DNA from: Mytilus edulis
Lineage: Eukaryota
Direction: 5' to 3'
Length of the DNA: 64,000 bases
NCBI RefSeq assembly: GCF_963676685.1
Contig: NC_092348.1
Coordinates: 9,982,001-10,046,000, forward strand
The notes under the pieces are model-generated. The model was not told the DNA's origin, ran no database searches, and saw nothing but the letters and a program-made list of their open reading frames with translations. Every line of letters starts with the position of its first letter. The first letter of the stretch is position 1. The translations under genes and the position numbers were made by a program. This document shows, piece after piece, positions 5,332 through 60,530 of the stretch.

Positions 5332-7324
5332 TTACTTATTTTCGTAATATCCGGTTATTTTTTTTATGACGGCCGCTGTTTTCGTAACACGAGGTGAACC
5401 GTCCTGTCTCCTTTGAGACAATAAATCAAGTAAACCCTGAAAGCCTTTTCTATTAAATGCAAGATCCAGATGACATTTCTTCAGACCGGATTGGGCACAC
5501 TTTACAGCCATCTGAGCAGACATATATTTTCCCTTAACAAGATCTCCAAAACTCTCAGCATCAACCTTTACCATTTTATCATATTTCATGTTTTCAGCTA
5601 TCGCTTCAACTGTAAAAGAAAATTCAAGTACATCTTGCTTTTCTACTTTGGAAACAGCCATTAACTTGTGTAAGGATTCCACATCATCAACGGCATTATG
5701 CGCATTGTACTGCTCATTACAAAAATGTTCAAATAATTTTTGCTGACTGTAGCTGTTTAGCCCTGGGAATTTTTGCCGGAAAAGCGGAAGCGTGTCGGCG
5801 AATCCAGATACGCATTTCCTAAAAGCTGCATAGCAGGTTAAATTGGACATGTTATTTAGCAAACGCCTAGCATCAAATAATTTGCAATTATGTGCAACAA
5901 GCATAACCTGACCGTATTGTTCTAACCAAAGGACAAAACTCTGGAACGCTGATTCCGAAGTAACTGCATGAACAGGTTTTCCATTGTAAAAAAGGATATT
6001 TCCATTTGCAGTTAAACCAGTAACGGCACTGGAACTCGGCGCTATTGATTTATTCGGCTGAATATAAGTATCAAACTTATCACCAGAGACAGTGTTTAAT
6101 GCAGCTATTTGCAGAATTTCAGAATCTAATTTCAGCGAAGATGTTTCCAGGTCAAAAATTATGCAACTACCTTCAAATGATGAAAAGGGCAATGATGCAG
6201 GTTTCTGTTTGATTCCCGGAATCTCTTTATCCTCAGTAACCAAGGAAAGAGACAGTCCCGATTTATATGTTACACCTTCTTTTTTTTCTGTCTGTTTTAT
6301 TTTATTTCTAAATTTCTTCTTTTCTAATCGCCGTTTTTTTACAACTGGTTGCTGGGAGTACTTCTGTTTCCGTTTTCTTTCTTTTAACAACTTTCCGGAA
6401 TGATTATCAGTGATTTCATCCGTTAAAAGGTTAGCTTGTGTATTTATGCAGAAAATGTAAGAATACCCTATGTTTTTTTGCAAGACTGCAGCGCTCACCC
6501 GTGTTTTAAGATTTTCGCTTTTACTAAAACAGAACCGTTTAGGAGCTTTAGATGCATAAATATTGTTGGTAGACTCCACATCTTTTGTTGATCCAGCCGG
6601 TGCTAGACGTTCAGCATTGTTAGCTACCGTTTCAAATATGACTTGGACGTCTTTTCGTAAAGCATCATCTGTAAGTGGTTTTCCATGAGGGAGATATTTA
6701 TGAAAATTATTTTCATTGCTTTTATTACACCAATCGCCACATTTGTCATGACTACCGAATGAATGAGGAACAATAGCTGTTAGTGTTTCTTTAAGTTTAG
6801 TTTCATTGTTTTTATTCTGTTGAATAGCATATGAAAAACACATTTTGTAATATTCTATGATATCTGTACTTAGTGCTTTGTGCTTAGATTTCAAATTATA
6901 AAAAGCATTTCCGAGTGATTTTGTTGAGTGGTTAATATCGCTCCATTTTTTTACATCGTGGTCCAAAGCTTCTTTTACCCTAGACAAAGTGGCTGCATCA
7001 TCATCCATGATAAGCACATCGACAGGAACCCCAGACACTTCTTCTATATTTTCCATCAGGGATGCCCCTGTTGACGATTCCATGGCTTTTGCGCTTTTTG
7101 ACCAATTCTTTTGACAGTTGTGTGGTTTTGCGTTTCTTTTGGCTTTCTCAGCACTATGACATATGGCGCAATGTGTAACACGCAGGTCGTAATCTAATAT
7201 TTTTCCAGTAAGCTGGCCAATTGCTGTCCCAACGCCAGACGAACTACTATACGAGCGACCTGATCCTCGCTTCTGCCAACACATGTCGTATTTTACTACC
7301 AATCCTTTCCCTGGTGTTGTAATT
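5332..7324 (-). CDS. Kolobok transposase coding exon 3: DDE catalytic domain + DEDDh 3'-5' exonuclease + PML-like C-terminal domain
   Basis: Acceptor TTTTTAG| at 7325. Transposase motifs YDMCWQKRG (D), CAIC/HNC, SAKAME, MDDDAA (D), DINH, H..C..WC, TKDVESTNN (E). Exonuclease motifs FDLETS (ExoI), VAHN..FDA (ExoII), HNAVDDV (ExoIII). Spliced product is ~796 aa from the Met at 10468. Confidence 0.9.
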
Positions 7325-7865
7325 CTAAAAAAATATTAATTTTACATATTATTTTTTATTATTATATTGGTTTTATAATTCTAATTATAAATTCTACGTA
7401 GTATTTAAAAAGACTAATATTGCCAGCAACACAGAATATAGCTATAGCAACAGCATCGTTAAATTCCAATTATGAGCTACGTGGAGTTTTTGGGATTGAT
7501 TGTTGATTGGTTGATGTCCAGTGGCAATCATTTCATGCATATTCAGGACGAGGTACTTTTACGATCTAGACTGTGAGCAGAAAAAGCGTTTTCAATTTTT
7601 ATGCGCCAAATATGTTTACAGATTTTGCAAAAAGTTGTCTCATTCCTAATTGACAATATGAATTAAGTTCACAGTTTTTTTCTCAATCCGTATTAACAAT
7701 TTGTATTTAGTTTACAGTACTTTCAATTATTATTTTTTCTTTTGTGTGTTTTTTTTTTGTTTTGTTTTTTTATTCAAATTTGTATATATTGCGTTTTCAT
7801 TAATATTGTATTGGTATCACCATCTCTCCTTAGGGAGGCTAATAAAGATATATATATATCAAAAT

Positions 7866-9223: not shown

Positions 9224-10248
9224 CTAAAATTTAAATAGCAATGTGTAGAGGTATTTAAATTAGATCTCAATAAAGTTAGCTGACATTGGAATACATTTTT
9301 ACAGAAACATGTTCATCACTTGAGTTCACAATACTAGACATAGTATTCTTGGTTTTGGAAACGGAGAAGCACGGACTGACGATATTATGAAAATAATACA
9401 TATGATTCTGTTATTTTCCTTCTTCTGGAAGCATAACATCGTCTAATTAATTTCCGGAAAGAATACATTGGCATTAAAATGAAAGATCTGTTGGTATATA
9501 CAAAAACCTTTATTTGATAGAAGTTGTTTATGTGTTTGTTATAGAAAATCTATTTTCATGTATAGTCGCCGATATTACAATGTATGGGCAGTATGATTTT
9601 ATACGGTTTCGTTAGGTGTTTCACGGATTCATGAACTATAGTTTTGTAGCTATGGAGTGAGAAATATCGCAGGTACTTAAGCTTGTTGTGGATTTTTTAT
9701 TTATTTCTTAGATTAAATGCAAATTAGAGCTAGACATACTGCATGGCACTGTTGAAGTAAAAGTAACACACGCAACTCAGATTGTTGAAGACATTAGGAT
9801 GATATCTCGGTGTTTTTTTTAAAAGTTATTTAGTTTTTTCCCTGTAAATTGTTTTAGTTGGTCGGATGCTGTCTCTTTCACAAACAGCAAAAACTCATTG
9901 AAAGAGGGGTGCAGCATTCCAAGGAAGCAGTTAATCACTTGGAATTTTTGTTATCGACACTATCACGATATCGTTGACCGTTATGGAATATATGGAGAAA
10001 GCTCAAAGTAAAGCCGTTATAATATGAGCTTTGTATATAGATTGACTACATATCATTGTGACCGCTTCCTCTCATTTTAAAGAATAAAATGTACTATTAT
10101 AAAGACGTAGAAGTTGATATGTCTGAAAAACATTAATTCAGGAATCGTTTAAACTGTGTTGTTTTAAAAAAATAAAAATTAAGGAATGTAATCGCAAGAG
10201 ACTGAGCAACAATGATATATCAATTCAAGAGATGTATTATCTAAATAC

Positions 10249-10468
10249 CTAATGCTGCTTTTGTGTTGACATCATACACCTGTGGACCACGTTTTCCATG
10301 TACGTGCGTTTCACTGGTCTCGATCTGATTAACTTGTCCGCATTCACATCGTATAAACAAATGGCTTGCATACCCCATATTTTTTTCAGATGTAATGTTT
10401 ATCAGAGCAAGTGCCTCCTTGCATTTTCGACAAAAGAGCTGTTTGGCTACATAAAATAGATCTATCAT
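10249..10468 (-). CDS. Kolobok transposase coding exon 1 (Cys-rich Zn-binding region)
   Basis: MIDLFYVAKQLFCRKC...GYASHLFIRCECG...YDVNTKAAL; phase-1 donor G|GTATTT at 10249/10248. The frame stays open upstream to a TAA at ~10530. Confidence 0.85.
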
Positions 10469-10722
10469 TCTTCTTCCTTTTTTCCATGACTCCTCATCAA
10501 CTGTGACCGTTTCTGTGTTCGCTAAGTCTTATAACATGCTCTGACGTTTTTTGCTTTGACTGTTTCACTTTTTCTCGTCTCTCTTTCTCTCTATGGCTAA
10601 GAAAGTGCCCGGAGTTTACCATTTTTAATGGCAGTTCCTGCAACCGGTTCCCGTCACAGTGACGTCATGGCATTCAAATGGGAAGGAGAAGTTTATTAAG
10701 GAAAATTACACGCATGACGTCC

Positions 10723-11310: not shown

Positions 11311-12704
11311 TCAGAACAAAATAGTTAGAAAGCCAAAACAAGTACAAGATTGAAGAGCATTGATGACCCAAAATTCCCAAAAAGTATGACAGACAGGAAT
11401 ACGAAACTGTCATTTCATGATATTGGCACGGTTCAAGTCCACATTTCAGCTCGCAAACGTAGCATTTATATCATTTGTAAAGTTAGATTTACTCAGAAAC
11501 TCGTTACAACAACAAAATGAAGCCGAATAAAAGAATTGTCCATGTTCAACTTTGAACTCGAGTGACTGGCAAACTTATGTGGCTTAATAACAATTACATA
11601 ACTTCTTAAGAAATAAAAAACATCAGAACAATATCATCAAAAATACTGAAAAATTAGCTGACAAAATGTCTATTTCTTAAAATTGTCCCAAGTTCAGTGA
11701 CCGGTTTTATGTCAAAATAGGTAAAAAAAAAAAAAAAAAAAAAAAATGTATTCAACTTTTCAAAATAAAACAATATAAAAAATGAACTCAATAAATAAAA
11801 CGGGTAATGGACAAAGGAGGGAAACATAAATTGAAAAGCAATATGTAAAGTTTTACTCAATTTAACTTAATGTTCACATAAATACAGAGCTAAAAAAAGT
11901 ACTTTGTATTTGCATATTTTTTGTCAATACCAACTTTTTGTGTAACTCGAAAACTTTAAATGCAAAACTGTTGTACATCAAGTTTTGAAGTGAAGTGATT
12001 TTTGTGTGGAGAACAGATTAATAATATTAAATGTAAGACAAACGGAGATTGGTGCAAAACTCAGATTTTAGCAAAAGAGACATATAAAATTAAGAACAAT
12101 TGAATTCATTTAAATATAATTACGTCTTCTACCGTTTCACCAACACTTTATGAAAACGATTTAAAAAAATAAAACAAATGGAGAATAATCTGAATTAAAT
12201 CAAAAGATTTGTGCGAGGGTTATAAAGCTATAAAACAAAAGAAAAGAATATAAAAATATAAAACATCATAATGTTTTTTTTTATCTATTTTACCACTGTC
12301 ATATTAGTGGGAGGTTTTGCTAGCTAAAAAAGGTTTTATCACAATTTTCGACATTAAGAAATATCTGTACTTATTAAGGAATATAACAGTTGTTTTTCAT
12401 TTGTTTGGTGTGTTTGAGCTTTTGTTTTTGCCAATTGAGAAAGGACATGCTGTTTAAATGTATTATATAAATGTGGCTCCATGTCTAATGCCATTTCAGT
12501 GGTCGAGTTGTTTGTAGAAGATCTTTTCATTTTAATTAAGGTATCTTTATTGCCGCCTCATGTTTGACAAATTCACTCACACACCACTGATAACAACTAA
12601 TAGTATATTTGATTGAATCATTCGTCAGCTCTTTGGGTTGCCTTTTTCCTACTGCAAGCACTTATTAACTGAAACTATTATATGTTAAACGTGAAATCAA
12701 GTAT

Positions 12705-14090
12705 AAAGTAAAATCACAAAAGTTCTGAACTTAGAGGAAAATCAATTCGGAAAGTCCATAATCACATGGCAAAATCAAATAACAAAACGCAGCCAAAATG
12801 AATGGACAAGAACTGTCATATTCCTGACTTGGTACAGGCATTTTCAAATGTAGAAAATGGTGGATTAAACCTGGTTTTATAGCGCTAACCCTCTCACTTT
12901 GATGACAGTCTCATTAAATAACAGTACATAGTGATTGATATTTTTTTATTTGTAAATGTACCCATAATTGCATTATTATTTGCATTCTCAATAACTTATA
13001 TTATTGACGCAGTGTATTCAATAATAAACTAGTAATAAGTAAGTATACGAACAATTTGGCGCGGAAGATCAATCTCAAAGATGTAAAAAAATCATCACGG
13101 CATATTTTATATTTTTCAAGCCAAAACAAAATAAGAATAAGCAAATGTTTTACTTGTATGTATTTTTTTGTATTCTGTTCATGCATTAAGTTACGACCAT
13201 AAACGTTGCTTTCTTATTGAAAAAGTAAAATCACAAAAATACTGAACTCCGAGGAAAATTCAAAATGGAAAGTCCCTAAACAAATGGCAAAATCAAATGA
13301 TAGAACACATCAAACGAATGGACAACAACTGTCAACCTGACTTGGTACAGATATTTTCAAATGTAGAAAATGGTGTATTGAACCTGGTTTTATAGCGCTA
13401 AACCTTTCACTTGTACGACAGTCGCATAAAAAAATCTATTATATTGACAATGGAAAATGAAGCGTGAACAAAATGTCACAAATATGGGTACAACAACAAC
13501 ATGAACCCCATCATAAACTGAGGGTGATAACAGATGCTCCGGAAGGGTACGCCGATCCTACTCTACGTGTGGCACTTGTCGTGTTGCTCATGTTAATACA
13601 AGGCCGATAAATAGTTTAATTCGGTAGGTCACATTCTTGAAAAGGGAACGGGATTGTAGTTACGACATAAAGAACATATCCGATATCATATGTATAATGG
13701 ATATTTAACCAACGCATGATGGCGTCCGTAAAATTTAAGAAGTTATGATTTCAACTAGGATCTCTTGGTTTAAAAATGAAAAGGTCACAATAAGGAAGCT
13801 GAAATCATCACTTTTGTCGTAAAAATATTTGTTTTCAACCGACCCTCAAAATCAATTTCTAGATATAAGTCATGACCAAATGGCAAAATCAAAAGCTCAA
13901 ACAAATCAAACGAATGGATAACAACTGTCAAATCCCTGACTTGTTAAAGGCATTTTCTTACGTAGAAAATGGTGGATTGAACCTGGTTTTATAGCGCTAA
14001 ACCTCTCACTTGTATGACAGTCGCATCAAATTTAATTATATTTACAACGATGCGTGAACAAAACAGACATAATAGGTAAAATAGTCAAGA
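12705..14090 (-). mobile_element. Cluster of three SINE-like copies of one family (~12705-12920, ~13220-13480, ~13878-14090)
   Basis: Shared CAAATGGCAAAATCAAA...CCTGACTTGGTACAG...AGAAAATGGTGGATT.AACCTGGTTTTATAGCGCTAA block. Further fragments at ~12305-12450 (+) and ~43050-43105 (+). Confidence 0.7.
13500..13875 (-). pseudogene. Decayed 3' fragment of a Penelope-like RT element
   Basis: Minus strand reads EGRLKT../YDKSDDFSFLIVTFSF across a frameshift, homologous to YDKRDDFSFPIVNYPF in the 14816 ORF. Confidence 0.6.
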
Positions 14091-14815
14091 AGGTGAAATA
14101 AAGCATTATATCAAAGCAGTTCATAGAATGTGCTCCAGGACGTCATTTGTTTTAATTTACAATTGCATCTCGTTTTGGATTACAGGTAGGTCTTCAAGGC
14201 TCTCCTTTTTGGAAACAGTTAAGTCTACATACCTCTGAATTTGAATAAAAATGTGGTCTTCATGCCACGAGCTTTAGAAAAAAAGTTTGGTCTTCAGGTG
14301 AAACAAATCCGCAATAATGCTGGAACATATTCAATAACAGTATAATACATAAAACGGGGTATAAAAGGAATAATTAGAATAATTAACAATACAACAGACC
14401 ATACTTACCAACAAGACGGCACTCTCGCAGAAAAATGATTAATGTATGGTTCAGATTGCTTGATTTCATGCAGGTATAAAATGTGGTGGCAGTACGTAGT
14501 TGTTAACCAGTTTTGCATGCACACAACCTTCTACTTTGTTTATCTAGGCTATGTGTGTACGTAAAAGTAAAAACAAAACATTCAAAGTTACAGCTGATCA
14601 AAACTTAACATTTTCTTAACTCTGACCATGCATGGTAAAAACTATTCATGTTTGCAAATTATTAGCCATCAGTGTCGGGAATAAGTGAATTAAGTAAGAA
14701 AACCGCTGAGCATGATCACACATAAAAACTCTCACAACTGACTTCATTTTCAGAAAACGACATCTGTAACAAACATAAACTTTTAGCTACTTCTTTACAA
14801 GCAGAACCAAACACA

Positions 14816-16123
14816 ATGAAAGTCCCAACTATGTACTGGCTTCCGAAGCTGCACAAAAAACCTTACAAATATAGATTTATTTCATCTTCCAGCCATTGTT
14901 CAACTACTAAATTGTCTGTTTTACTTACTAGTACACTTGGTACAATAAAAAACCTGATAATAAATTGTTCAAATAAGGCCTTTGAAAATAGTGGAATTAA
15001 TTACTTTTGGAGTGTCAAAAACTCGTTGGAAGTACTTGATAAATTGCATGCATATATTGGTGATTTTGAATCTGTTCAAAGTTTTGATTTTTCTACCCTA
15101 TATACCACTTTGCCTCATATTCTTATTAAGAAAAAATTCACATCCCTAATTAACTGGGCATTTAAAAAGTCGGAATGCGAGTACATATGTTCAAACTCTT
15201 TTAGATCATTTTTTAGTAGCAATAAACAAAAGAACTATGTCAATTGGACATGCTTTGATACTATTTATGCACTTGAATTTTTACTTGATAACATTTTTGT
15301 TCGCTTTGGAGATTCCGTATATCGTCAAGTTATTGGAATTCCAATGGGGACTAACTGTGCACCACTTATTGCGGACCTGTTTTTGTATTGTTATGAGTTA
15401 CAATTTATGACTAAAATTAGCAAAGACCCATCAAAACAACATTTGATACAAAAATTTAACAATACTTTTAGATATTTGGATGATATATTGGCTCTAAATA
15501 ATGACGACTTCAGTATGTATACTAAAGAAATTTATCCTGTAGAACTTACTTTAAATAAAGCTAATGATAACAATGACCACTGCCCTTTCCTCGATCTTGA
15601 TATCTATATCATAAACGGGAAGCTTAATACAAAAATTTATGATAAAAGAGATGATTTTTCATTTCCTATTGTTAATTATCCATTTTTAGATGGTGACGTT
15701 CCCTTGTCACCATCTTATGGTGTTTATATATCTCAACTTGTACGATTCGCTCGTGTATGTAACAATGTATTAGATTTTAGCGAGAGAAATTTATGTATTA
15801 CTGAAAAATTATTACACCAGGGTTTTCGATATCACAAACTGGTCAAAACATTTACTAAATTTTATCACCGGTATAAGGAAATAATTCGTAAATATAACTC
15901 AACATGCAGACATCTTATACGTTCAGGTATTTCACATCCAAAATTTTATGGAAATATTCTTTATAAAGCACAAAAATGTCAGTATTCTCCTCAGAAACTA
16001 ACAAAACCTTTAAATAGACTTATTAAAAGGGGATATAGTTACGATACTGTTGTCAGGTCATTAAAGATTGCATATTTTGGCTTTAACATTGATTCACTGA
16101 TAGGGTCTTTGCATCGGAACTAA
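14816..16123 (+). CDS. Penelope-like reverse transcriptase (N-terminally truncated)
   Basis: YWLPKLHK..RFI, DFSTLYT, GIPMGTNCAPLIADLFL, FRYLDD, PFLD, YDKRDDF, YISQLVRFARVC. Confidence 0.9.
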   Translation: MKVPTMYWLPKLHKKPYKYRFISSSSHCSTTKLSVLLTSTLGTIKNLIINCSNKAFENSGINYFWSVKNSLEVLDKLHAYIGDFESVQSFDFSTLYTTLPHILIKKKFTSLINWAFKKSECEYICSNSFRSFFSSNKQKNYVNWTCFDTIYALEFLLDNIFVRFGDSVYRQVIGIPMGTNCAPLIADLFLYCYELQFMTKISKDPSKQHLIQKFNNTFRYLDDILALNNDDFSMYTKEIYPVELTLNKANDNNDHCPFLDLDIYIINGKLNTKIYDKRDDFSFPIVNYPFLDGDVPLSPSYGVYISQLVRFARVCNNVLDFSERNLCITEKLLHQGFRYHKLVKTFTKFYHRYKEIIRKYNSTCRHLIRSGISHPKFYGNILYKAQKCQYSPQKLTKPLNRLIKRGYSYDTVVRSLKIAYFGFNIDSLIGSLHRN

Positions 16124-16178
16124 ACACATTTATTTCTAAAAAAAACAGTTGTTGGCATGACACGGGTTATGTTCTTCT

Positions 16179-16243
16179 CATATATTTTATGATAGTATGA
16201 TACTAAACCCCTAACGGGAGGGATTGTACCTGATATTCATATG
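16179..16243 (+). promoter_or_regulatory. SECIS-like element (type II) in the retroelement 3' UTR
   Basis: CAUAU..AUGA(16189)-UAGUAUGAUACU-AAA(16205)-CCC..GGG ministem-GGGAUUGUACC-UGAU(16231)..AUAUG; helix II GUAUGAU/AUUGUAC; 12 nt between AUGA and AAA. Confidence 0.65.
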
Positions 16244-17749
16244 ATGAAGACATAATCTTTCAATCAGTTTAATTGAGGTCTGGAGCTGGCATGTCAGTTA
16301 ACTGCTAGTAGTCTGTTGTTATTTATGTATTATTGTCATTTTATTTATTTTCTTTTGTTACATCTTTTGACATCAGACTCGGACTTCTCTTGAACTGAAT
16401 TTTAATGTGCGTATTGTTATTCTTTTACTTTTCTACATTGGCTAGAGGTATAGGGGGAGGGTTGAGATCTCATAAACATGTTTAACCCCGCCGCAATTTT
16501 GCGCCTGTCCCAAGTCAGGAGCCTCTGGCCTTTGTTAGTCTTGTATGATTTTAAATTTTAGTTTCTTGTGTATAATTCGGAGTTCAGTATGACGTCCATT
16601 ATCACTGTACTATTATGCATATTTTAGGGGCCAGCTGAAGGACACCTACGGGTGCGGGAATTCTCGCTTCATTGAAGACCCATTGGTTGCCTTCGGCTGT
16701 TGTTTGCTCTATGGTCGGGTGGTTGTCGCTTTGACATATTCACCATTTCCTTTCTCAATTTTATTGATGCTGATTACTGCTGAATTGCTCTAAGAATGTA
16801 ACATTGTCTTGTCATTTTCGTTCATTGGGTTTTATGTTTATATTAAAGTTAGATTAACTATTAAAGCTTCTATCTTACACTGTTCGAACATGTACCAAGT
16901 CTCCAATACCACCGTTACATTTCCGATGTTAGATCGGCTAATATAAAGTGTTTCCCGTTTAACATTTCAAATAATTTTGTTACTCTGTTCGAGGGTATTA
17001 CTCAATGTAGCTTTTCTTTTAGAATAACAGGGATCAACCTTTGTGGCACTTATTAATTTGAATCTGTTTATTTCCATTTTTCTAATTTCATGTGGATCTT
17101 TGGGCTAAAATGTCCGTGTTTTCACCTCAAATTTTACTCTGAGTACAGATTACCCTATGGATCTGGAAAGTTTCTAGACAAAGTTTGCCCTAGATGAAAA
17201 GAATTCTCGTGCATTTAATTTTTTAGAAAATTTAAAACGTATTTGGATTTCAAAAGTGCATTTTTTTCGTTCCTGCAGAATTAGATAATTATTGAATTGT
17301 TCTTATATTTATGTAAAATATTTTGACAACTTATCGATGGACATTTGAAATAAAATGAAAGATAAGAAAACTTACCTAACCTATTCTTAATCACCTGTTA
17401 AAACAAACCTTAATCACCTGTTAAAACACACCTTGCTTGTATAATAACAATTACAATGTGTTACATAACCTGATAACTTTATTAAATAATTTATTATGTC
17501 ACTATGAAGGAATGTTCATTATTCGAGATGGCTTCTAAAACTAAGATATGTTGGCAGTATTAGTCACAGCTTTTTTTATTATTATTATCAAGGACGTATA
17601 ACTAACATACGTCCTTGTTATTATTGATTTAAATATTTACACACAGATGGATTCAAAGATATATTCAAAGATATGTATTGTTCAACTAGATAGATTCATA
17701 GATAACTCAGTTTTTGCATGGATCATTTTTTGGCTACCTCTGGCAACCT

Positions 17750-22485: not shown

Positions 22486-22580
22486 TCAAATATAGCATGG
22501 TTTGACGGAAGATTGTTGTCAAGTATGCAAATCCAAACTCTACTTAATTGCTTGATATTTCTGTTTGCAGGATACACAAA

Positions 22581-24350
22581 ATGAGTCTTCACATGATAAC
22601 ACATGCTGTAATGTTTGCTGTCATAGCAACATTAGTAAAGAAATATCTCCAAATTCTTTATCAGCTGGATGATTTACAGGATAGATGTCTGTATGCAGAA
22701 TGGGAGCATTCAAACAAAGCAGATTTAAATACACACAAAACTCAAGATGAATCTCAAAAAAGCAACATGAAATTCAATTCTTTTGAAACATGTCAGTCAA
22801 ATTTGAAAACTCATGTTTGCCATTTTAAAAATCTATGCTATCAGCCAAAAGAAAATTTGTTTGTTTATTTCTATAACAAGGATGAAATCAAATATAGTTC
22901 TATAAACAGAAATAACATTCCATCACTTTCTACTCCAGCTGATTTCACAGGACACAAACTACCACTTACGTTTCTCAGTGAAAACTTTTCATCACAATTC
23001 AGTGTCAGATGGATAAATAAAACAAGTTACATTTTCAATCGCTTCAAGTCCGACAATCTCATGCATGTTATTCATGATGACTTACTACCTTTACATTTCA
23101 CAATGAAACATTTTGAAAACTTGAAATTAAAGATGGCTGCCTTGGATAAATTTGATGCACAGATTGTATTTATGGATGACTGGCCTCCAGGAGATTACAG
23201 AGCATTGTATGAACTTTTTACAAATTATCAACCTCAGTATAAAATAGATTTACAAGGAATTGAACAACAGCATGGTAAAGAAGTACAAGATGGGAGAGAA
23301 CTTGTATGTTTCTCAAGTGCAATAGTCGGTCTTTTAACAGATACTTTATGGTATAATTACGGGTTTATTGGGCCACAGGGCCCTATATTAGACTCCACAG
23401 TTAATGCTCATCAAATTAAATCTACTAGTAACTTTATTTTACATCATCTGGATTCAAATGCTCAACATTCAATAGACTTCATAGTTTTGATATCAAGGAA
23501 AGAAAATCGTAAAATTATGAATGAAGATGATCTAGTCAAAGCAATTTTGCAAGAATTTTCAATGAAAGTTGTAACAATAAGTAGTGAAACACATTCATTA
23601 ACAGATATGATAACACTTGTTTCTAATGCTAAGGGTGTAATAGGAATGCATGGATCCTTGTTAATTCTGGCAATGTTTTTAAAACCAGGGTCTTTCTTAA
23701 TAGAACTCTTTCCATATGCTGTGTCGCCTGTTCAATATACCCCATACAAGACATTAGCCAACATCAAAGGTTTGGAGATAAATTATGCCTCTTGGGAAAA
23801 TACCGATCAGAAATCTACAGTCAGCCATATTGATTATCCATCAGAGCATGGGGGTCTGATGCATTTACAGTCAGAAGTTCAGAAGGAAATTATAAACCAG
23901 GAGAAAGTACCCAAACATTTATGTTGTGATGATCCTTCTTGGCTTTATCATATTTATCAGGACACTTTTGTAGATATCAGTGCAATCTTGAATTTAATCA
24001 AAATAGTCATGAAAAGTGGAAAGATTGCCAATACTAGACATTTTGCATATCTTGAAACACCATCTGAAGTTAGAAATCTCAACTGTAAACTTATAAAGGA
24101 GCAAACATGTTCACTTAATATATCATGGGAAATACCATGGAACATGCAGTTTTTAACTTTTGACAAACTCAACTATGAAATTATTCTTGAGGAGAGTCGT
24201 GCAGAAGCTTCAGTTAAATATGTAACAGACAAATTAAAATTAGAAATACATGACAGAATAGACTGTGAAAAAGATTACATTGTTTGGGGAAAAGCTGTAG
24301 TAGATGGTATGTCTCATGACAATTATATAAGTAAAGATTGTCATAATTAA
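22581..24350 (+). CDS. POMGNT2: Protein O-linked mannose beta-1,4-N-acetylglucosaminyltransferase 2 (GT61 family, C-terminal FN3-like domain)
   Basis: N-terminal hydrophobic anchor; RFKSDNLMHVIHDDLLP, WYNYGF.GPQGP, GMHGSLLILAMFL.PG...IELFPYAV, YTPYKTLA, HLCCDDPSWLYHIYQDT. One large exon after acceptor TTTGCAG| (22570); first ATG at 22581 gives 589 aa. Confidence 0.9.
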   Translation: MSLHMITHAVMFAVIATLVKKYLQILYQLDDLQDRCLYAEWEHSNKADLNTHKTQDESQKSNMKFNSFETCQSNLKTHVCHFKNLCYQPKENLFVYFYNKDEIKYSSINRNNIPSLSTPADFTGHKLPLTFLSENFSSQFSVRWINKTSYIFNRFKSDNLMHVIHDDLLPLHFTMKHFENLKLKMAALDKFDAQIVFMDDWPPGDYRALYELFTNYQPQYKIDLQGIEQQHGKEVQDGRELVCFSSAIVGLLTDTLWYNYGFIGPQGPILDSTVNAHQIKSTSNFILHHLDSNAQHSIDFIVLISRKENRKIMNEDDLVKAILQEFSMKVVTISSETHSLTDMITLVSNAKGVIGMHGSLLILAMFLKPGSFLIELFPYAVSPVQYTPYKTLANIKGLEINYASWENTDQKSTVSHIDYPSEHGGLMHLQSEVQKEIINQEKVPKHLCCDDPSWLYHIYQDTFVDISAILNLIKIVMKSGKIANTRHFAYLETPSEVRNLNCKLIKEQTCSLNISWEIPWNMQFLTFDKLNYEIILEESRAEASVKYVTDKLKLEIHDRIDCEKDYIVWGKAVVDGMSHDNYISKDCHN

Positions 24351-26980: not shown

Positions 26981-27434
26981 CACAGGCAAAATTTACTCAC
27001 ATGAAATTCACATGAAAAATTTCACGCGAGATTCACCTCAACCGAGCTTATACATGAAACTCACGTGAAAATTTTCATGTGAATTTCACGTGAATTGAGA
27101 TTCACATGAATCTGATGTGAAATTTTTCACATGAATTTCACGTGAAATTTACAACAAAATGTTTTAATATTTTTCATGATTTTGATTAAATTTAAAAATT
27201 TAGATGTTATTTGAAATACTCTATTTTAAAAATTCATGTGAATTTCACATGAAAAAATATACGTGATTTTCATGTGAAATTCACATGAGTTTCACATGAG
27301 ATTCACATGAAACTCACAAAAACTGATTTCACGTGAGTTTCACGTATAAGCTCGTTTGAGGTGAAATTCATTTCACGTGAGATTCACATGAATTAAATTT
27401 AACGTGAAATTGATGTGAGTGCAATTTGCCTGTG
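26981..27434. mobile_element. Foldback MITE with CAC...GTG termini and many TTCAC(A/G)TGA repeats
   Basis: TIR CACAGGCAAAATTTACTCACAT / ATGTGAGTGCAATTTGCCTGTG; internal IR around CACCTCAACCGAGCTTATAC. Confidence 0.8.
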
Positions 27435-30599: not shown

Positions 30600-31270
30600 A
30601 AGATATAAGAAGATGTGGTATGAGTGCCAATGAGACAACTCTCCATCCAAGTCACAATCAGTTATAAAAGTAAACCATTATAGGTCATAGTACGGTCTTC
30701 AACACGGAGCCTTGGCTCACACCGAACTGCAAGCTATAAAAGGTGCCCCAAAAAATTACTAGTGTAAAACCGTTCAAACGGGTAAACCAACTAACTAATC
30801 TATATAAAAAACGTGAAACGAGAAAACTTATGAACCACATCAACAAACGACAACTACTGAACATCAGATTCCTAACTTAACTCTCAACTTGAGACCAAAT
30901 TACACAGACATTAACAAGTTCTATAGGTCACCGTACGGCATATAATGAGCAAATCCCATACCGGATAGTCAGCTAAAAAAGGCACAGAAATAACAAATGT
31001 AAAACAACTTAAACGAGAAAACTAACGGCCTAATTCATGTCCAACAATATGAACGAAAAACAAATATGCATGTAACACATCAACAAACGACAACCACTGA
31101 AATACAATATCCTGACTCGGGACAGGCACATGCATACAGAATGTTACGGGGTTAAACATGTTAGCAGTATCCCAACCCTCCCCCTAACATGGGCCATTGG
31201 TGTAACAGTACAACATAAGTACGAACTATAAAAATCAGTTGAAAAGGCTTAACTCATCAGATGGATACAA
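30600..31270 (-). mobile_element. Two adjacent non-autonomous retroposon copies (family ending GAGAGTTGTCTCATTGGC..TCATACCACATCTTCT)
   Basis: The same 3' tail recurs at ~3910-4020, ~34290-34375, ~50190-50275, ~53360-53392, ~56350-56430 and ~60790-60870. Confidence 0.7.
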
Positions 31271-33682: not shown

Positions 33683-34629
33683 ATACAGATGAGCCGGTCC
33701 ATATTTGATAAACTGATAATTTTATTGTTATTATGTAATATGTTAATTTATGTCTAAATATATATCCTGATACTAGAATGTTATAGTCGCCATAATGATA
33801 TTCATAACCGTACAGTTTGAAGTGCTTAACATCGCCAGTAAGAAACGACACTTTTGTTGGTTTTTTTTATTTCACGATGTCCAGGTTTGTTAAGTTGTTT
33901 CCTTGTTGGCATTTACTAAACTTCCTCGTTATCATCTAGATAACTTTGATGCATTAGGATTCATTAGATTTAGATGTCTTCGAATTGAGGATCTAATTTG
34001 TAATCTAAAGATCATCAATTAGTTGTAATCGTAGTCGTAGTACTGTTTAATGCTTAAATTATTAATTTAAAGGTTCTGGGGCTTTGCATTTATTAAAATA
34101 AGTACTCTGTAACTGTGCATAATGAACCAACATATCATGGTGTGTTTGTTAGTGAGTTTTTGATATGCCATTGACCTTATTTGTATGCTTCAATTGAGGC
34201 AAAAACCTTCTATGGGATAGTACATTAAATCCATTGAATGTTGGATGTGTGCTTGTTGATATTTTCGTCGTAGATACATGATTTTTTTTAAGTTGTTAAC
34301 TTCTGTGTCATTTGGTATCTGGTTGAGAGTTGTTCTGTAATTGGGAATCATACCGTGCACGTCTTTTTTTTTTATATTGAATTTTCTTTTATCAAACGTT
34401 GTTTGCCGTTTATTATTAGTAATTTTCCTTTTAGCATTGGTAGCAAGGTTAATCAAATCTTGTTCTCTATTTCATATTCCAATTGTCATCATTTTTAGTA
34501 ATGTCCAATTCTAAGGTACTAGTAATATAAGTTTATATGATGCCGAGAGTAATGATTTTGCCTTAAAGACTTCAGCCTAAATTTCAATCATTATAGGCAT
34601 TTAAAAAGCATTTCGGTGTGTGTCCACAC

Positions 34630-35930
34630 AACACCATACTAAGAAAAATAGACTAAGCAAGACGAACCCCACAAAACACTATACAAAGAAAAATAGACTA
34701 AGCAAGACGAACCCCACAAAACACCATACAAAGAAAAATAGACTAAGCAAGACGAACCCCACAAAACACCATACAAAGAAAAATAGACTAAGCAAGACGA
34801 ACCCCACAAAACACCATACAAAGAAAAATGGACTAAGCAAGACGAACCCCACAAAACACCTTCCAAAGAAAAATGGACTAAGCAAGACGAACCCCACAAA
34901 ACACCATACAAAGAAAAATAGACTAAGCAAGACGAACCCCACAAAACACCATACAAAGAAAAATAGACTAAGCAAGACGAACCCAACAAAACACCATACA
35001 AAGAAAAATAGACTAAGCAAGACGAACCCCACAAAACACCATACAAAGAAAAATAGACTAAGCAAGACGAACCCCACAAAACATCATACAAAGAAAAATA
35101 GACTAAGCAAGACGAACCCCACAAAACACCATACAAAGAAAAATAGACTAAGCAAGACTAACCCCACAAAACACCATACAAAGAAAAATAGACTAAGCAA
35201 GACGAACCCCACAAAACACCATACAAAGAAAAATGGACTAAGCAAGACGAACCCCACAAAACACCTTCCAAAGAAAAATGGACTAAGCAAGACGAACCCC
35301 ACAAAACACCATACAAAGAAAAATAGACTAAGCAAGACGAACCCCACAAAACACCATACAAAGAAAAATAGACTAAGCAAGACGAACCCCACAAAACATC
35401 ATACAAAGAAAAATAGACTAAGCAAGACGAACCCCACAAAACACCATACAAAGAAAAATAGACTAAGCAAGACTAACCCCACAAAACACCATACAAAGAA
35501 AAATAGACTAAGCAAGACGAACCCCACAAAACACCATACAAAGAAAAATGGACTAAGCAAGACGAACCCCACAAAACACCTTCCAAAGAAAAATGGACTA
35601 AGCAAGACGAACCCCACAAAACACCATACAAAGAAAAATAGACTAAGCAAGACGAACCCCACAAAACACCATACAAAGAAAAATAGACTAAGCAAGACGA
35701 ACCCAACAAAACATCATACAAAGAAAAATAGACTAAGCAAGACAAACCCCACAAAACACCAGACAAAGAAAAATAGACTAAGCAAGACGAACCCCACAAA
35801 ACACCAGACAAAGAAAAATAGACTAAGCAAGACGAACCCCACAAACACCATACAAAGAAAAATAGACTAAGCAAGACGAACCCTACAAAACACCATACAC
35901 AAAGTAGACTGAGCAAAACGAATCCCACAA
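34630..35930. repeat. 45-bp tandem repeat, ~29 copies
   Basis: Unit ACAAAACACCATACAAAGAAAAATAGACTAAGCAAGACGAACCCC. Confidence 0.95.
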
Positions 35931-36865
35931 AAAAAAAACCAATGAACTTTTGTTGGTGTCAATCAAAAATATATAGTGAGCACAAATTTTAAAATATTAT
36001 AAAACCATGTTTTACTGGTCACAATCATATAAAGTTGAAAACATTGTTTTAGCGACGGCCACGCGTATCTTTATTTGATTATTAGATCGGTTACAAACTC
36101 GTATAATAATTGATTCAGATCATGGGTTCCTCTTTACACAAGACAGACTCTATGATGAATTGTCAACTCATTGGCATTCCCCTTCATAATGACGTCACCG
36201 TTTAAACAGGTAAATCGAATCTGCCAGTGACTTATAAAGTCAAACTAATGAAAACTTGATAGTTCTTCTGACTATTTAGAAATTCGTTCTTAGGGTTTAT
36301 ACATATTTATTGTACCAGTTAAAGTGCTTGAGGTTATAACAGCCCATTTTATGAAGATAACAGGCTATTTAGGAGTACTGATGAAGATAAGTGTGACGAA
36401 GTCTTGCCTTTACTATGACGAGACAAAAATATATCTAAAATATATGATACAGAAAAGTAGAAAGCATTTATTTGAAATATTGACCACATTAGTTTTCATT
36501 TTTGTTCATAAAAAATACATTTTAAGAGAAATGCGTAATTTTGTAACTTTCCACCGTGTATCTTTTTTGAAAATAAGCGCTGCAAACGAGCAAAAAATGC
36601 TTAACATTATGTCGAATGGCTATTATCTTTTTCAATAATACAAATCGACTGAGCTTTTACCAACTGTCTAACTCTTTGACTGCATATCTGAAGGCCAATC
36701 ATCGGGGAAAAGCCACAAAAAGTTTATTATTGTGATCATATCATCTCATGATCTCTCTATACTTAAACCAAGAACATGTGTATCCAAATCCACGAAGAAG
36801 GTAACCAAAACCTGAAGAAAGACCGACGAACGAACAAAGAAAAACAGGCAATATAGTGTATAAAG

Positions 36866-58309: not shown

Positions 58310-60530
58310 AGTCTGTGTAATACAACATTTCTGGAGCCACATGTGGTCTTTAACACAACATTTCTTGAGCCAGTCATGTAGTCTGTAACACAATATTTCT
58401 GGAGCCCCATGTGGTCTGTGTAATGTTACATTTCTGGAGCCCTATGTGGTCTGTGTAATGCTACATTTCTGGAGTCCCATGTGGTCTGCAACACAACATT
58501 TCTGGAGCCACGTGTGGTCTGTAACACAACATTTCTGGAGCCCCATGTGGTCTGTGTAATGTTACATTTCTGGAGCCCCATGTGGTCTGTGTAATGCTAC
58601 ATTTCTGGAGTCCCATGTGGTCTGTGTAATGCTACATTTCTGGAGCCCTATGTGGTCTGTAATGCTACATTTCTGGAGCCCCATTAGGTCTGTTTAATGC
58701 TACATTTCTGTACCACATTTAGTTGGGAAAAGACTAAATTTTTTGCATTAAATGAAGTTTGTTTAATGCTACATTTCCTTTGCCACTTGTGATCTGTGTA
58801 AAGCTACAATTCCTGTGCCTCATGTGGTCTGTGTAATGCAACACTCTTCCCGTGCCACATGTGGTTTGTGTAATGTGACATTCTTGTGCCACATGTGGTC
58901 TGTGTAGTGCTCTATTTCCTGTGGCACATGTGGTCTGTGTAATGCTTTCATTTCCTGTACCACATGTAGTCTGTGTAGTGCTTTATTTCCAGTTCCACAC
59001 ATGATATTTGTAATGCAACAATTTTCCTGTGCCACATGTGGTTTGTGTAATGCTACATTTCTTGTGCCACATATGGCCTGGGTAGTGCTTTATTTCCTGT
59101 GGCAAATGTACGATGTCTTATGCCACATTTCCTGTACCACATGTGGTCTGTGTAATGTTGCATTTCCTGTGTCACTTGTGGTCTGTATAGTTCATATTTC
59201 CTGTGGCAAATGAACTGTGTGTAATTAAACTGTGTGTAATGCTACATTTCCTGTATCTCATGTACTTTGTGTAATGCTACATTTCTGACCTCTACTACAT
59301 GTGGTCTGTGTAATGCTAAATTTCCAGTACCTCATGTTCTTTGTGTAATGCTACATTTCTTGTACCACATGTGGTCAGTGTAATGCTGCACTTCCTGTGA
59401 CACCTGTGGTTTGTGTAGTGCTTTATTTCCTGTGGCAAATGTATAGTGTGTAATGGTACAATTCATGTACCTTATGTAGTATGTGTAATGATTTATTTCT
59501 TGTTCCCCATATGATCTGTGTAATGCAACATTTTTGCTATGCCACATGTGGTAGACCCATTGGTGGCCTTCAGCTGTTGCCTTCTCCTTGGTCGGGTTGT
59601 TGTCTCTTTGGCATTTTCACCATTTCGTTTAACAATTTTATGTGTAATGCTACATTTTTATAGCACATGTGGTCTGTAATGCTACATTTCCTGTTCCACA
59701 TGTGTTCTCTATTGCTACATTTCCTGTGCTACATGTGTTCTCTGTATTGCTACATTTTCTGTACCACATGATGTCTCTATTTCAATATTTCCTGTGGCAT
59801 ATGTGGCCTGTGTAATGCTACATTTTCTATGCCACATGCTTTCTCTGTATTGCTACATATCATATTTTTTTCATTGTATTGCTACATTTCCTATGGCACA
59901 TGTGTTGTCTGTGTTGCTACATTTCCTGTACCACATGTGTTCTCTATTGCTACATTTTTTATACCACATGTGTTCTCTGTATTGCTACATTTACTGTACC
60001 ACATGTGTTCTCAATTGCTACATTTCCTGTGGCATGTGTGTTCTCTGTAATGATATGCTCCCTGTGCCACATGTGATCTCTGTATTGCTACATTTCCTGT
60101 GCGATATATGTTCTCTGTATTGCTACATTTCCTATACCACATGTATTCTCTGTATTGCTACATTTCCTGTGCCACATGTGTTCTCTGTATTGCTTCATTT
60201 CCTGTACCACATGTGTTCTTTATTGCTACATTTCCTGTGGCACGTGTGTTCTCTGTAATGATATGCTCCCTGTGCCACATGTGTTCTCTGTATTGCTATA
60301 TTTCCTATGACATATATCTGACATGTGTAATGCTACATTTCCTGTGCCACATGTGATCTCTGTATTGCTACATTTCATGTGCAACATATGTTCTGTGTAT
60401 TGTTAATTTCCATACCACATGTATTCTCTGTATTGCTACATTTCCTGTGCCACATGTGTTCTCTCTATTGCTACATTTTCTGTTCCACATGTGGTCTGTG
60501 TCATGCTATATTTCAGCTCCACATGTGGTA
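58310..60530. repeat. 35-bp minisatellite with regional subfamilies
   Basis: Unit CCACATGTGGTCTGTGTAATGCTACATTTCCTGTG and variants; interrupted at ~59552-59640. Confidence 0.92.

Follow-up and report, generated by a model that had tools for sequence, protein, structure and literature searches.

Probable selenocysteine codons, a SECIS hairpin and a probable twister-like ribozyme in Naiad retroelements of a likely Mytilus host

Introduction

Why would a selenocysteine-insertion (SECIS) hairpin follow a reverse transcriptase (RT) frame in which no UGA codon occurs? This question is raised by positions 16179-16243 of the window, that is, the whole 64-kb stretch of DNA analyzed here. A preliminary description of the window had assigned the hairpin to a Naiad Penelope-like element (PLE) that had lost its UGA codons by 5' truncation.

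Selenoprotein Naiads were described from clams (Naiad_Scon, Naiad_Mmer) and spiders (Naiad_Sdum, Naiad_Smim) by Craig 2021 (PMC8557442), the only treatment found in the literature consulted, most subscription papers apart. In the sections of that paper used here, the mussel Naiads Mcor, Mgal, Bpla and Mphi are given without selenoprotein comment and Naiads are stated to have no canonical hammerhead.

Materials and methods

SECIS candidates were screened with a crude pattern requiring no fewer than 8 paired positions among the 10 of helix II and with the Rfam SECIS_1 model, whose gathering score of 35 bits is a library threshold and not a biological feature. The SECIS alignment comprised 11 rows and omitted L109, which is identical to the window copy, the family C duplicates L127, L128 and L137, and three loci in which no motif was present (L116, L136 and L142). 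For the twister-like motif, 12 of 37 distinct segments were aligned, near-duplicates and decayed or shortened segments being dropped. The L050 neighbour (70% identical, decayed, with a broken SECIS) was excluded from alignments.

RNA reads came from three raw runs (X22, X23 and X24), possibly from a sister species and of unstated library orientation. Pile-ups of read ends were listed only if they reached at least a fifth of the local depth. Published Naiad sequences were compared by eye only.

Results

A truncated Naiad copy and its hairpin

The hairpin belongs to the 3' UTR of a retroelement copy with the following features:

14735..16764, + strand: 5'-truncated copy of Naiad family A1 (identity to 29 copies, common 3' end)
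14735..16123, + strand: retained RT portion of the ORF, residues 541-1002 of protein P0001, without TGA and ending in TAA
16179..16243, + strand: SECIS element, type II-like (Rfam SECIS_1, fold, covariation)

The A1 unit measures ~4.03 kb, of which the window copy retains the last 2030 nt. It is 99.3-99.9% identical to 29 other genomic copies; A1 copies share one common 3' end and have many different 5' starts, the longer ones extending 5' of 14735. A 401-nt DNA query was 100% identical to all 40 scored places, window included (best 40 of 223 candidates). No target-site duplication was seen at the window copy. An upstream pseudo-LTR is found at 19 of 30 loci, and tandem copies occur alongside 5' truncation. 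Two perfect head-to-tail arrays were observed, one of three family A units spaced by 4031 nt (G000:C2:6415555-6424990) and one of three units of family D, introduced below, spaced by 3370 nt (G000:C1:408353-415383). No hammerhead family was among the Rfam matches on the Naiad copies scanned.

Two copies with an upstream pseudo-LTR have an unbroken frame of 1002 codons once TGA is read as a residue. The product, P0001, contains Cx4CxxC and CCHH fingers, a GIY-YIG-type motif, CxC, DKA and RT. Pfam gave no GIY-YIG match on this protein, and neither Pfam nor PDB sequence searches returned an RT or GIY-YIG match; the assignment to Naiad therefore rests on motifs, homologs and a fold search. The fingers and GIY-YIG motif were aligned to homologs, two of which bear PF01541. 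The predicted fold (mean pLDDT 76.5) is closest to telomerase RTs, telomerase structures occupying 18 of the top 19 Foldseek rows (best E 8.8e-11). With an N-terminal GIY-YIG, CxC, DKA and a telomerase-like RT fold, the Naiad identity first proposed for the element is borne out. Gene callers give 430-435-aa RT-only proteins for family A, and Naiad elements of this kind are in practice mis-annotated as broken RT fragments.

When P0004 (80% identical) was used as query, family A alone was returned (74 scored); P0054 returned families A and B alone. Family B is present in this genome at up to 100% identity, and its protein cluster contains named M. edulis and M. californianus proteins, which makes a Mytilus host likely.

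A TAA at 16121-16123 closes the RT frame, and the SECIS starts 55 nt further on. It consists of ATGA (16189-92), 12 nt, AAA (16205-07), a CCC/GGG mini-stem and TGAT (16231-34). Helix I pairs CATAT (16179-83) with ATATG (16239-43), with a predicted extension to ~16165/16257, and helix II spans 16194-16203/16221-16230. The arrangement ATGA-N12-AAA...TGAT agrees with the eukaryotic SECIS core (RUGA/NGAN, with AA(A) 11-13 nt away). SECIS_1 matches exactly 16179-16243 (30.9 bits, E 0.00099), as the best of 5 matches in a 1.5-kb scan. The position and geometry originally claimed hold; as the score check that had been asked for, this is a match, yet one below the gathering score of 35 bits. The region folds with z = -2.84, and 0 of 200 shuffles were equally stable. 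An A.C mismatch in helix II had been described as the only one. It is present (A16194.C16230) but is accompanied by A16202.G16222, leaving 8 of 10 positions paired; the former reads G-C in sister subfamily A2.

The crude pattern finds 4 sites in the 64-kb window on both strands, the element at 16179 among them. A match at 27054 was rejected, as it falls in an unrelated palindrome-rich repeat; the stretch 27000-27250 is rich in short palindromes and matches the SECIS pattern by chance.

In-frame UGA codons at cysteine positions

The retained frame was said to be free of UGA, and there is indeed no TGA in 14735-16123; the missing codons were expected in the lost 5' part of the full-length family. 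Full-length A1 has four in-frame UGAs there, at positions 55, 86, 97 and 522, each aligned with Cys. UGA55 is the second Cys of the Cx4CxxC finger, UGA86 the Cys before the GIY-YIG motif, UGA97 the first Cys of the CCHH finger and UGA522 the Cys eight residues after DKA (DKA+8). In non-Sec homologs, sites 55, 97 and 522 are Cys in 7/7 and site 86 in 5/7. UGA522 lies ~19 codons 5' of the point of truncation of the window copy, whose SECIS is an orphan because the truncation removed all four UGAs. The AlphaFold model of P0001 has pLDDT <50 over residues 1-57 and is therefore uninformative on a shared metal site of U55 and U86.

DKA+8 is TGA in 13/13 matches (12 of 20 loci reach the site). All three N-terminal TGAs are present in 147 of 150 scored copies (best 150 of 3553 candidates); two of the remaining three have two TGAs and one has a single TGA and a TAA. 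As N-terminal copies are young, this retention reflects descent more than selection. Five segments were compared between A1 and A2 (~93% identical), with dN/dS values of 0.05, 0.07, 0.11, 0.18 and 0.13; one of these segments consists of the Met-free codons 56-96. Purifying selection thus acts in every tested segment between the UGAs.

The codon shared across families is TGA only, never TAA or TAG. Family B (63% identity) keeps all four TGAs and adds a fifth at the first CxC Cys, in 8/8 loci reaching the N-terminus. In family C, TGA occupies 55, 86, 97 and CxC, as judged from the one decayed locus reaching these sites, and DKA+8 is TGC in 7/7. Several SECIS-bearing relatives likewise have Cys at DKA+8, and on a 26-row RT tree this site differs in Sec or Cys between sisters three times (A vs L112/P0003-5, B vs C, and L116 vs P0188). 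In the distant Naiads P0220 and P0115 a Trp is found at DKA+8, being either the caller's other-code TGA or a real TGG.

Five tRNA-Sec genes score above cut-off in the genome, with anticodon TCA in the 3/3 checked. A tandem array of a tRNA-like unit with a period of 895 nt (G000:C10:14401393-14442259) reaches 45.9 bits with the tRNA-Sec model, just below cut-off.

The SECIS covaries and is absent from a Cys-only family

At 13 of 17 loci the crude pattern finds at least 8/10 pairs in helix II. The four others are two decayed B copies, L116, which has TGA at DKA+8 and no SECIS pattern within the 211 nt of UTR present, and L117, which has TTGA instead of ATGA. SECIS_1 was found in 4/13 relatives, all below gathering, and family B was not detected by it; scores were 30.9 bits for the window, 32.3 for A2, and 28.0, 24.9 and 24.3 for others.

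In the 11-row alignment, TGA, GA and AA of the SECIS core are invariant. RNAalifold, unprompted, returned helix II exactly, with compensatory changes in 8 of its 10 pairs, which supplies the covariation across copies on which the original claim had been made to depend. Helix II cells are paired in 92.7% of cases and helix I cells in 54.5% in ungapped register. The covariation score of the named structure is 0.573, against 0.247 for shuffled alignments and at most 0.263 for slid ones, the slid control being biased toward a structure derived from the same sequences.

Family D has ~1000-aa ORFs with Cys at all sites and TGA in 0/5 intact ORFs. No SECIS was found in it by pattern in 6/6 loci or by Rfam in 3/3. 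The genome thus contains two further families (B and C) with UGAs and SECIS, and a family D without either. The hairpin at 16179-16243 is a real SECIS: a known kind of element, in a new host group and serving new Sec sites. The 300-nt UTR of family D (L164:870-1190, - strand; L163-L168) contains palindromes and a G+C-rich hairpin, for which Rfam returned nothing; it may hide another ribozyme.

Orphan SECIS copies and their genomic surroundings

Exact copies in the genome number 5,493 for a 21-mer of the SECIS and 492 for a 19-mer at UGA97 (controls 0); ~91% of SECIS copies (~5,000 cores) are without the N-terminal UGA97 region. The scattering of orphan SECIS elements by 5'-truncated copies, suggested earlier, is confirmed by these counts. 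The further suggestion that such orphans recode host UGA stops or titrate SBP2 found no support: neither a host gene linked to any SECIS copy nor a copy in a host 3' UTR was found here, and the + strand between 6403 and 14726 contains no ORF of at least 110 aa.

Other features of the window were also observed. A single 600-aa ORF of the GT61 type (PF04577), likely a host gene, lies at 22548-24350 (+), 5.8 kb past the Naiad copy. On the - strand, 5332-7335 and 10241-10528 encode a Mutator-like transposase (PF20700) with a 3'-5' exonuclease and a PML_C-like domain, the N-terminal piece of the transposase being 3 kb off. Diverged remnants of Naiad 3' UTRs occur at 31110-31246 (-, 71% identity) and 59553-59641 (+, 84% identity), and a tandem repeat at 34605-35958 keeps long open frames on both strands.

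A twister-like motif in the same 3' UTR

A second structured RNA lies 240 nt downstream of the SECIS. A weak twister match in a distant relative pointed to 16440-16530, where the Twister-P5 model (RF02684) matches 16453-16519 in a 201-nt scan with 23.4 bits (E 0.0042), below its gathering score of 37.6 bits; in the 1.5-kb Rfam scan of the window region no twister match appeared. The preliminary description made no mention of a ribozyme. The features, with element names following the rice twister, are:

16440..16530, + strand: type-P5 twister-like ribozyme, putative (Rfam Twister-P5, covariation, RNA ends in run X24)
16440-49/16521-30, + strand: stem P5
16453-56/16486-89, + strand: stem P2
16459-61 with 16509-11, + strand: pseudoknot T1
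16490-91 with 16514-15, + strand: pseudoknot T2
16504-19, + strand: P4/L4
16464-71 and 16474-83 (16464..16483), + strand: two loopless palindromes at the place of P1 (compensatory changes)
12295..14088, three - strand and one + strand: four decayed 3'-terminal fragments from a different Naiad family (repeats D1 and I1; Naiad_Mgal consensus by eye)

G16457 is the putative catalytic G and, by the rice twister numbering, the cut is predicted to fall between U16483 and A16484 (L032 766/765).

In the 12 aligned rows, 93% of the cells are paired. Compensatory changes affect 2/3 pairs of T1, 1/2 of T2, 1/4 of P2 and 5/5 of the P3 helix; P4 is invariant and therefore contributes no covariation. U/C-A-A at the presumed cut, G-A and the AAG of L4 are conserved, with four Mgal-like rows one column off at the cut and P2 one pair shorter and bulged in Mgal-like rows. 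The same core was seen by eye, with further compensatory changes, in the published UTRs of Naiad_Mgal, Naiad_Bpla, Naiad_Scon and Naiad_Mmer. The fragments at 12295-14088 match the 3' end of Naiad_Mgal and each still contain remains of a twister-like core, in which T1 is U-A as against G-C in family A.

Stem P1 is not present. Since P1 has been reported dispensable in twisters (PMC11662667), the motif is filed as a twister variant. The two palindromes at the place of P1 show compensatory changes in 4/4 and 2/4 pairs, respectively; they have no monomer fold and form self-duplexes of -10.8 and -8.2 kcal/mol. They are candidate dimerisation strands that would pair only between two molecules. The pairing of lowest predicted energy in this region is a different one, and inactive.

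In the genome, the P4 hairpin pattern has 58,454 occurrences, as against 109 for its control, many of them presumably being fragments without the 5' half. The twister core was not found in the Cys-only family D, which transposes without it. The possibility that insertions start at the ribozyme cut was rejected, as 0/7 defined starts of upstream pseudo-LTRs fall there and 13/19 upstream pseudo-LTRs reach more than 500 nt past it. As insertions do not start at the cut, their template would be an uncut multimer or a circle, and not a linear RNA beginning there.

RNA reads over the unit

Reads of the three runs span the whole unit. In X24, 67 molecules end at L032:765 at a depth of 307, which is the largest of 15 listed pile-ups and falls on the base directly 3' of the predicted cut. 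At the listing threshold of a fifth of local depth, neither X22 nor X23 has a listed pile-up there. Ends at 765 would mark where the 3' product begins, provided that first mates are antisense, which is usual for stranded libraries. RNA ends also cluster in the RT region at L032:1538-1556 (20 of depth 81 in X23, smaller in X24); this second cluster coincides with a depth bump rich in other letters and possibly consists of related-family reads.

Over the last 540 nt, depth is 54-356 on both strands, far above that of the 5' ORF, and depth at the SECIS (bins 887-1156) is below that of the last 400 nt. Run X23 is strand-biased over the 5' ORF. Between 42 and 45% of the mapped reads continue into dissimilar sequence, and twelve X24 reads cross the junction from unit end to unit start, which fits an uncut multimer or a circle.

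Discussion

The explanation that we consider highly probable is that the window holds a truncated copy of a young Naiad family that encodes selenocysteine by means of four UGAs and a SECIS, that the SECIS is an orphan at this locus, and that the same UTR carries a twister-P5-like ribozyme cutting between U16483 and A16484. In full-length copies, the SECIS would bind SBP2 and likely recruits the host selenocysteine machinery, yielding a single selenoprotein of 1002 aa that combines endonuclease and RT. The 3' UTR, which doubles as the pseudo-LTR of tandem copies, would hold the ribozyme. Cleavage between U16483 and A16484 would likely take the role of the hammerhead in other PLEs, converting tandem transcripts into units. 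Less expected than the SECIS is the twister-like ribozyme, with RNA ends falling where it is predicted to cut.

The UGAs could instead be true or leaky stops, the RT being translated from M568 or the element mobilised in trans by a Cys-type Naiad, with the hairpin as a relic. The RT-only proteins of gene callers, the intact Cys-type family D in the same genome and the Cys found at DKA+8 in several SECIS-bearing relatives would suit such a view. It leaves unexplained, however, why each segment between UGAs is under purifying selection, why TGA alone is shared across families and only in Cys columns, and why the SECIS shows covariation and goes with the UGA families, and we hold it to be very improbable. 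A different proposal grants the SECIS its function and extends it to the host, orphan copies in host 3' UTRs recoding UGA stops or the copies jointly titrating SBP2. In its favour are the ~5,000 cores without an N-terminal UGA region and the transcription of the last 540 nt from both strands, with 42-45% of mapped reads running into unlike sequence. Against this, no copy is tied to a host gene, no + strand ORF of at least 110 aa lies within 8 kb upstream of the window copy, and read depth at the SECIS falls short of that in the last 400 nt. Moreover, any sense copy retaining the SECIS retains the twister-like ribozyme downstream of it as well, and this would sever the host poly(A) tail from read-through RNAs. 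That 5'-truncated Naiads might donate a SECIS has been put forward before, as an untested idea (PMC8557442, section 16). An effect on the host therefore appears quite unlikely.

Doubt of another kind concerns the twister-like motif, which might be a protein-binding or RT-initiation signal or a set of promoter palindromes, the X24 ends then marking an RT stop or a transcription start. A Twister-P5 score below gathering, the missing P1, a different lowest-energy fold and ends listed in one run only are compatible with a non-catalytic role, as is the lizard element PAc, whose hammerhead cleavage is not needed in vitro and at whose site no RNA-seq ends were seen (PMC11167929). Both pseudoknots covary, however, the read ends fall on the exact predicted base, the same core is discernible by eye in four published bivalve Naiads, and P1 is reportedly dispensable (PMC11662667). 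These points render a non-catalytic motif unlikely, if less remote than inert UGAs. The positions presumed catalytic are kept as well, and a ribozyme acting on Naiad transcripts remains our preferred reading.

We tentatively advance a further idea, which we would sooner expect to fail than to hold: the P1-less twister would act solely as a dimer through its palindromes, cut tandem transcripts alone, and form with the SECIS a 3' cassette tying transposition to selenium. If so, a dimeric twister would free unit-length, possibly circular templates and account for the tandem arrays; bivalve Naiads, thought to be ribozyme-free, would carry a ribozyme whose P4 hairpin is present at ~58,000 places in the genome; and transposition would be linked to selenium through four or five selenocysteines, at sites toggling between Sec and Cys by family.

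Selenoprotein transposons previously amounted to four consensus sequences, whereas here at least three families and a Cys-only control coexist in one genome. Thousands of near-identical young copies make the benefit of Sec to the endonuclease fingers directly testable, and the relation of dietary selenium to transposition rate and SECIS donation by truncated copies can be tested here too. A twister would fill the hammerhead gap of Naiads and imply that PLEs could swap ribozyme class, and it would provide the RNA ends at a PLE ribozyme site that were sought but not found in PAc.

Comparison with known systems

Like the clam and spider Naiads, the present families combine an N-terminal GIY-YIG, CxC, DKA and a C-terminal RT in units of ~4 kb with pseudo-LTR tandems, and have UGA at the pre-GIY Cys, the first CCHH Cys and DKA+8 together with a SECIS in the 3' UTR (PMC8557442). 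The host here is likely a mussel, which would extend selenoprotein Naiads to this group from clams and spiders. Family A joins the UGA sites of clams with the second finger Cys, reported in that source only for the spider element Sdum, and in families B and C a further UGA stands in for the first Cys of CxC, which is not among the positions given in section 8 of the same paper. At DKA+8, Sec and Cys alternate among sister families. The SECIS differs as well, being type II-like and 55-145 nt past the stop here, whereas those of the published Naiads are type I, at 1-21 nt (PMC8557442).

No report of a twister in Penelope-like elements was found in the literature compared (most subscription papers and the bivalve-containing tables of PMC11662667 apart); the word has 0 occurrences in the main texts of PMC8557442 and of a 2026 retrozyme preprint, and the parts used of PMC6765202 and PMC10085705 discuss hammerheads alone for PLEs. 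The motif resembles Twister-P5 (RF02684) in P2, P4, both pseudoknots, UAA at the cut, the GAGGG strand and the P5 permutation. It departs from type P5 in that two loopless palindromes replace P1, P4 is CCUG/CAGG and insertions do not start from the cut. With the twister variants of Schistosoma Perere-3 it shares the tie to a retrotransposon, those being located 5'-terminally in an RTE element (PMC8501958) and not, as here, in the 3' UTR and pseudo-LTR of a PLE. In this last respect it recalls the minimal PLE hammerheads of Cervera and de la Pena 2014 (PMC4209133), which are self-cleaving motifs in a pseudo-LTR. Their palindromes hint that they act as dimers, and a template of unit length or circular form has been proposed for the tandem insertions; the class of ribozyme is different here.
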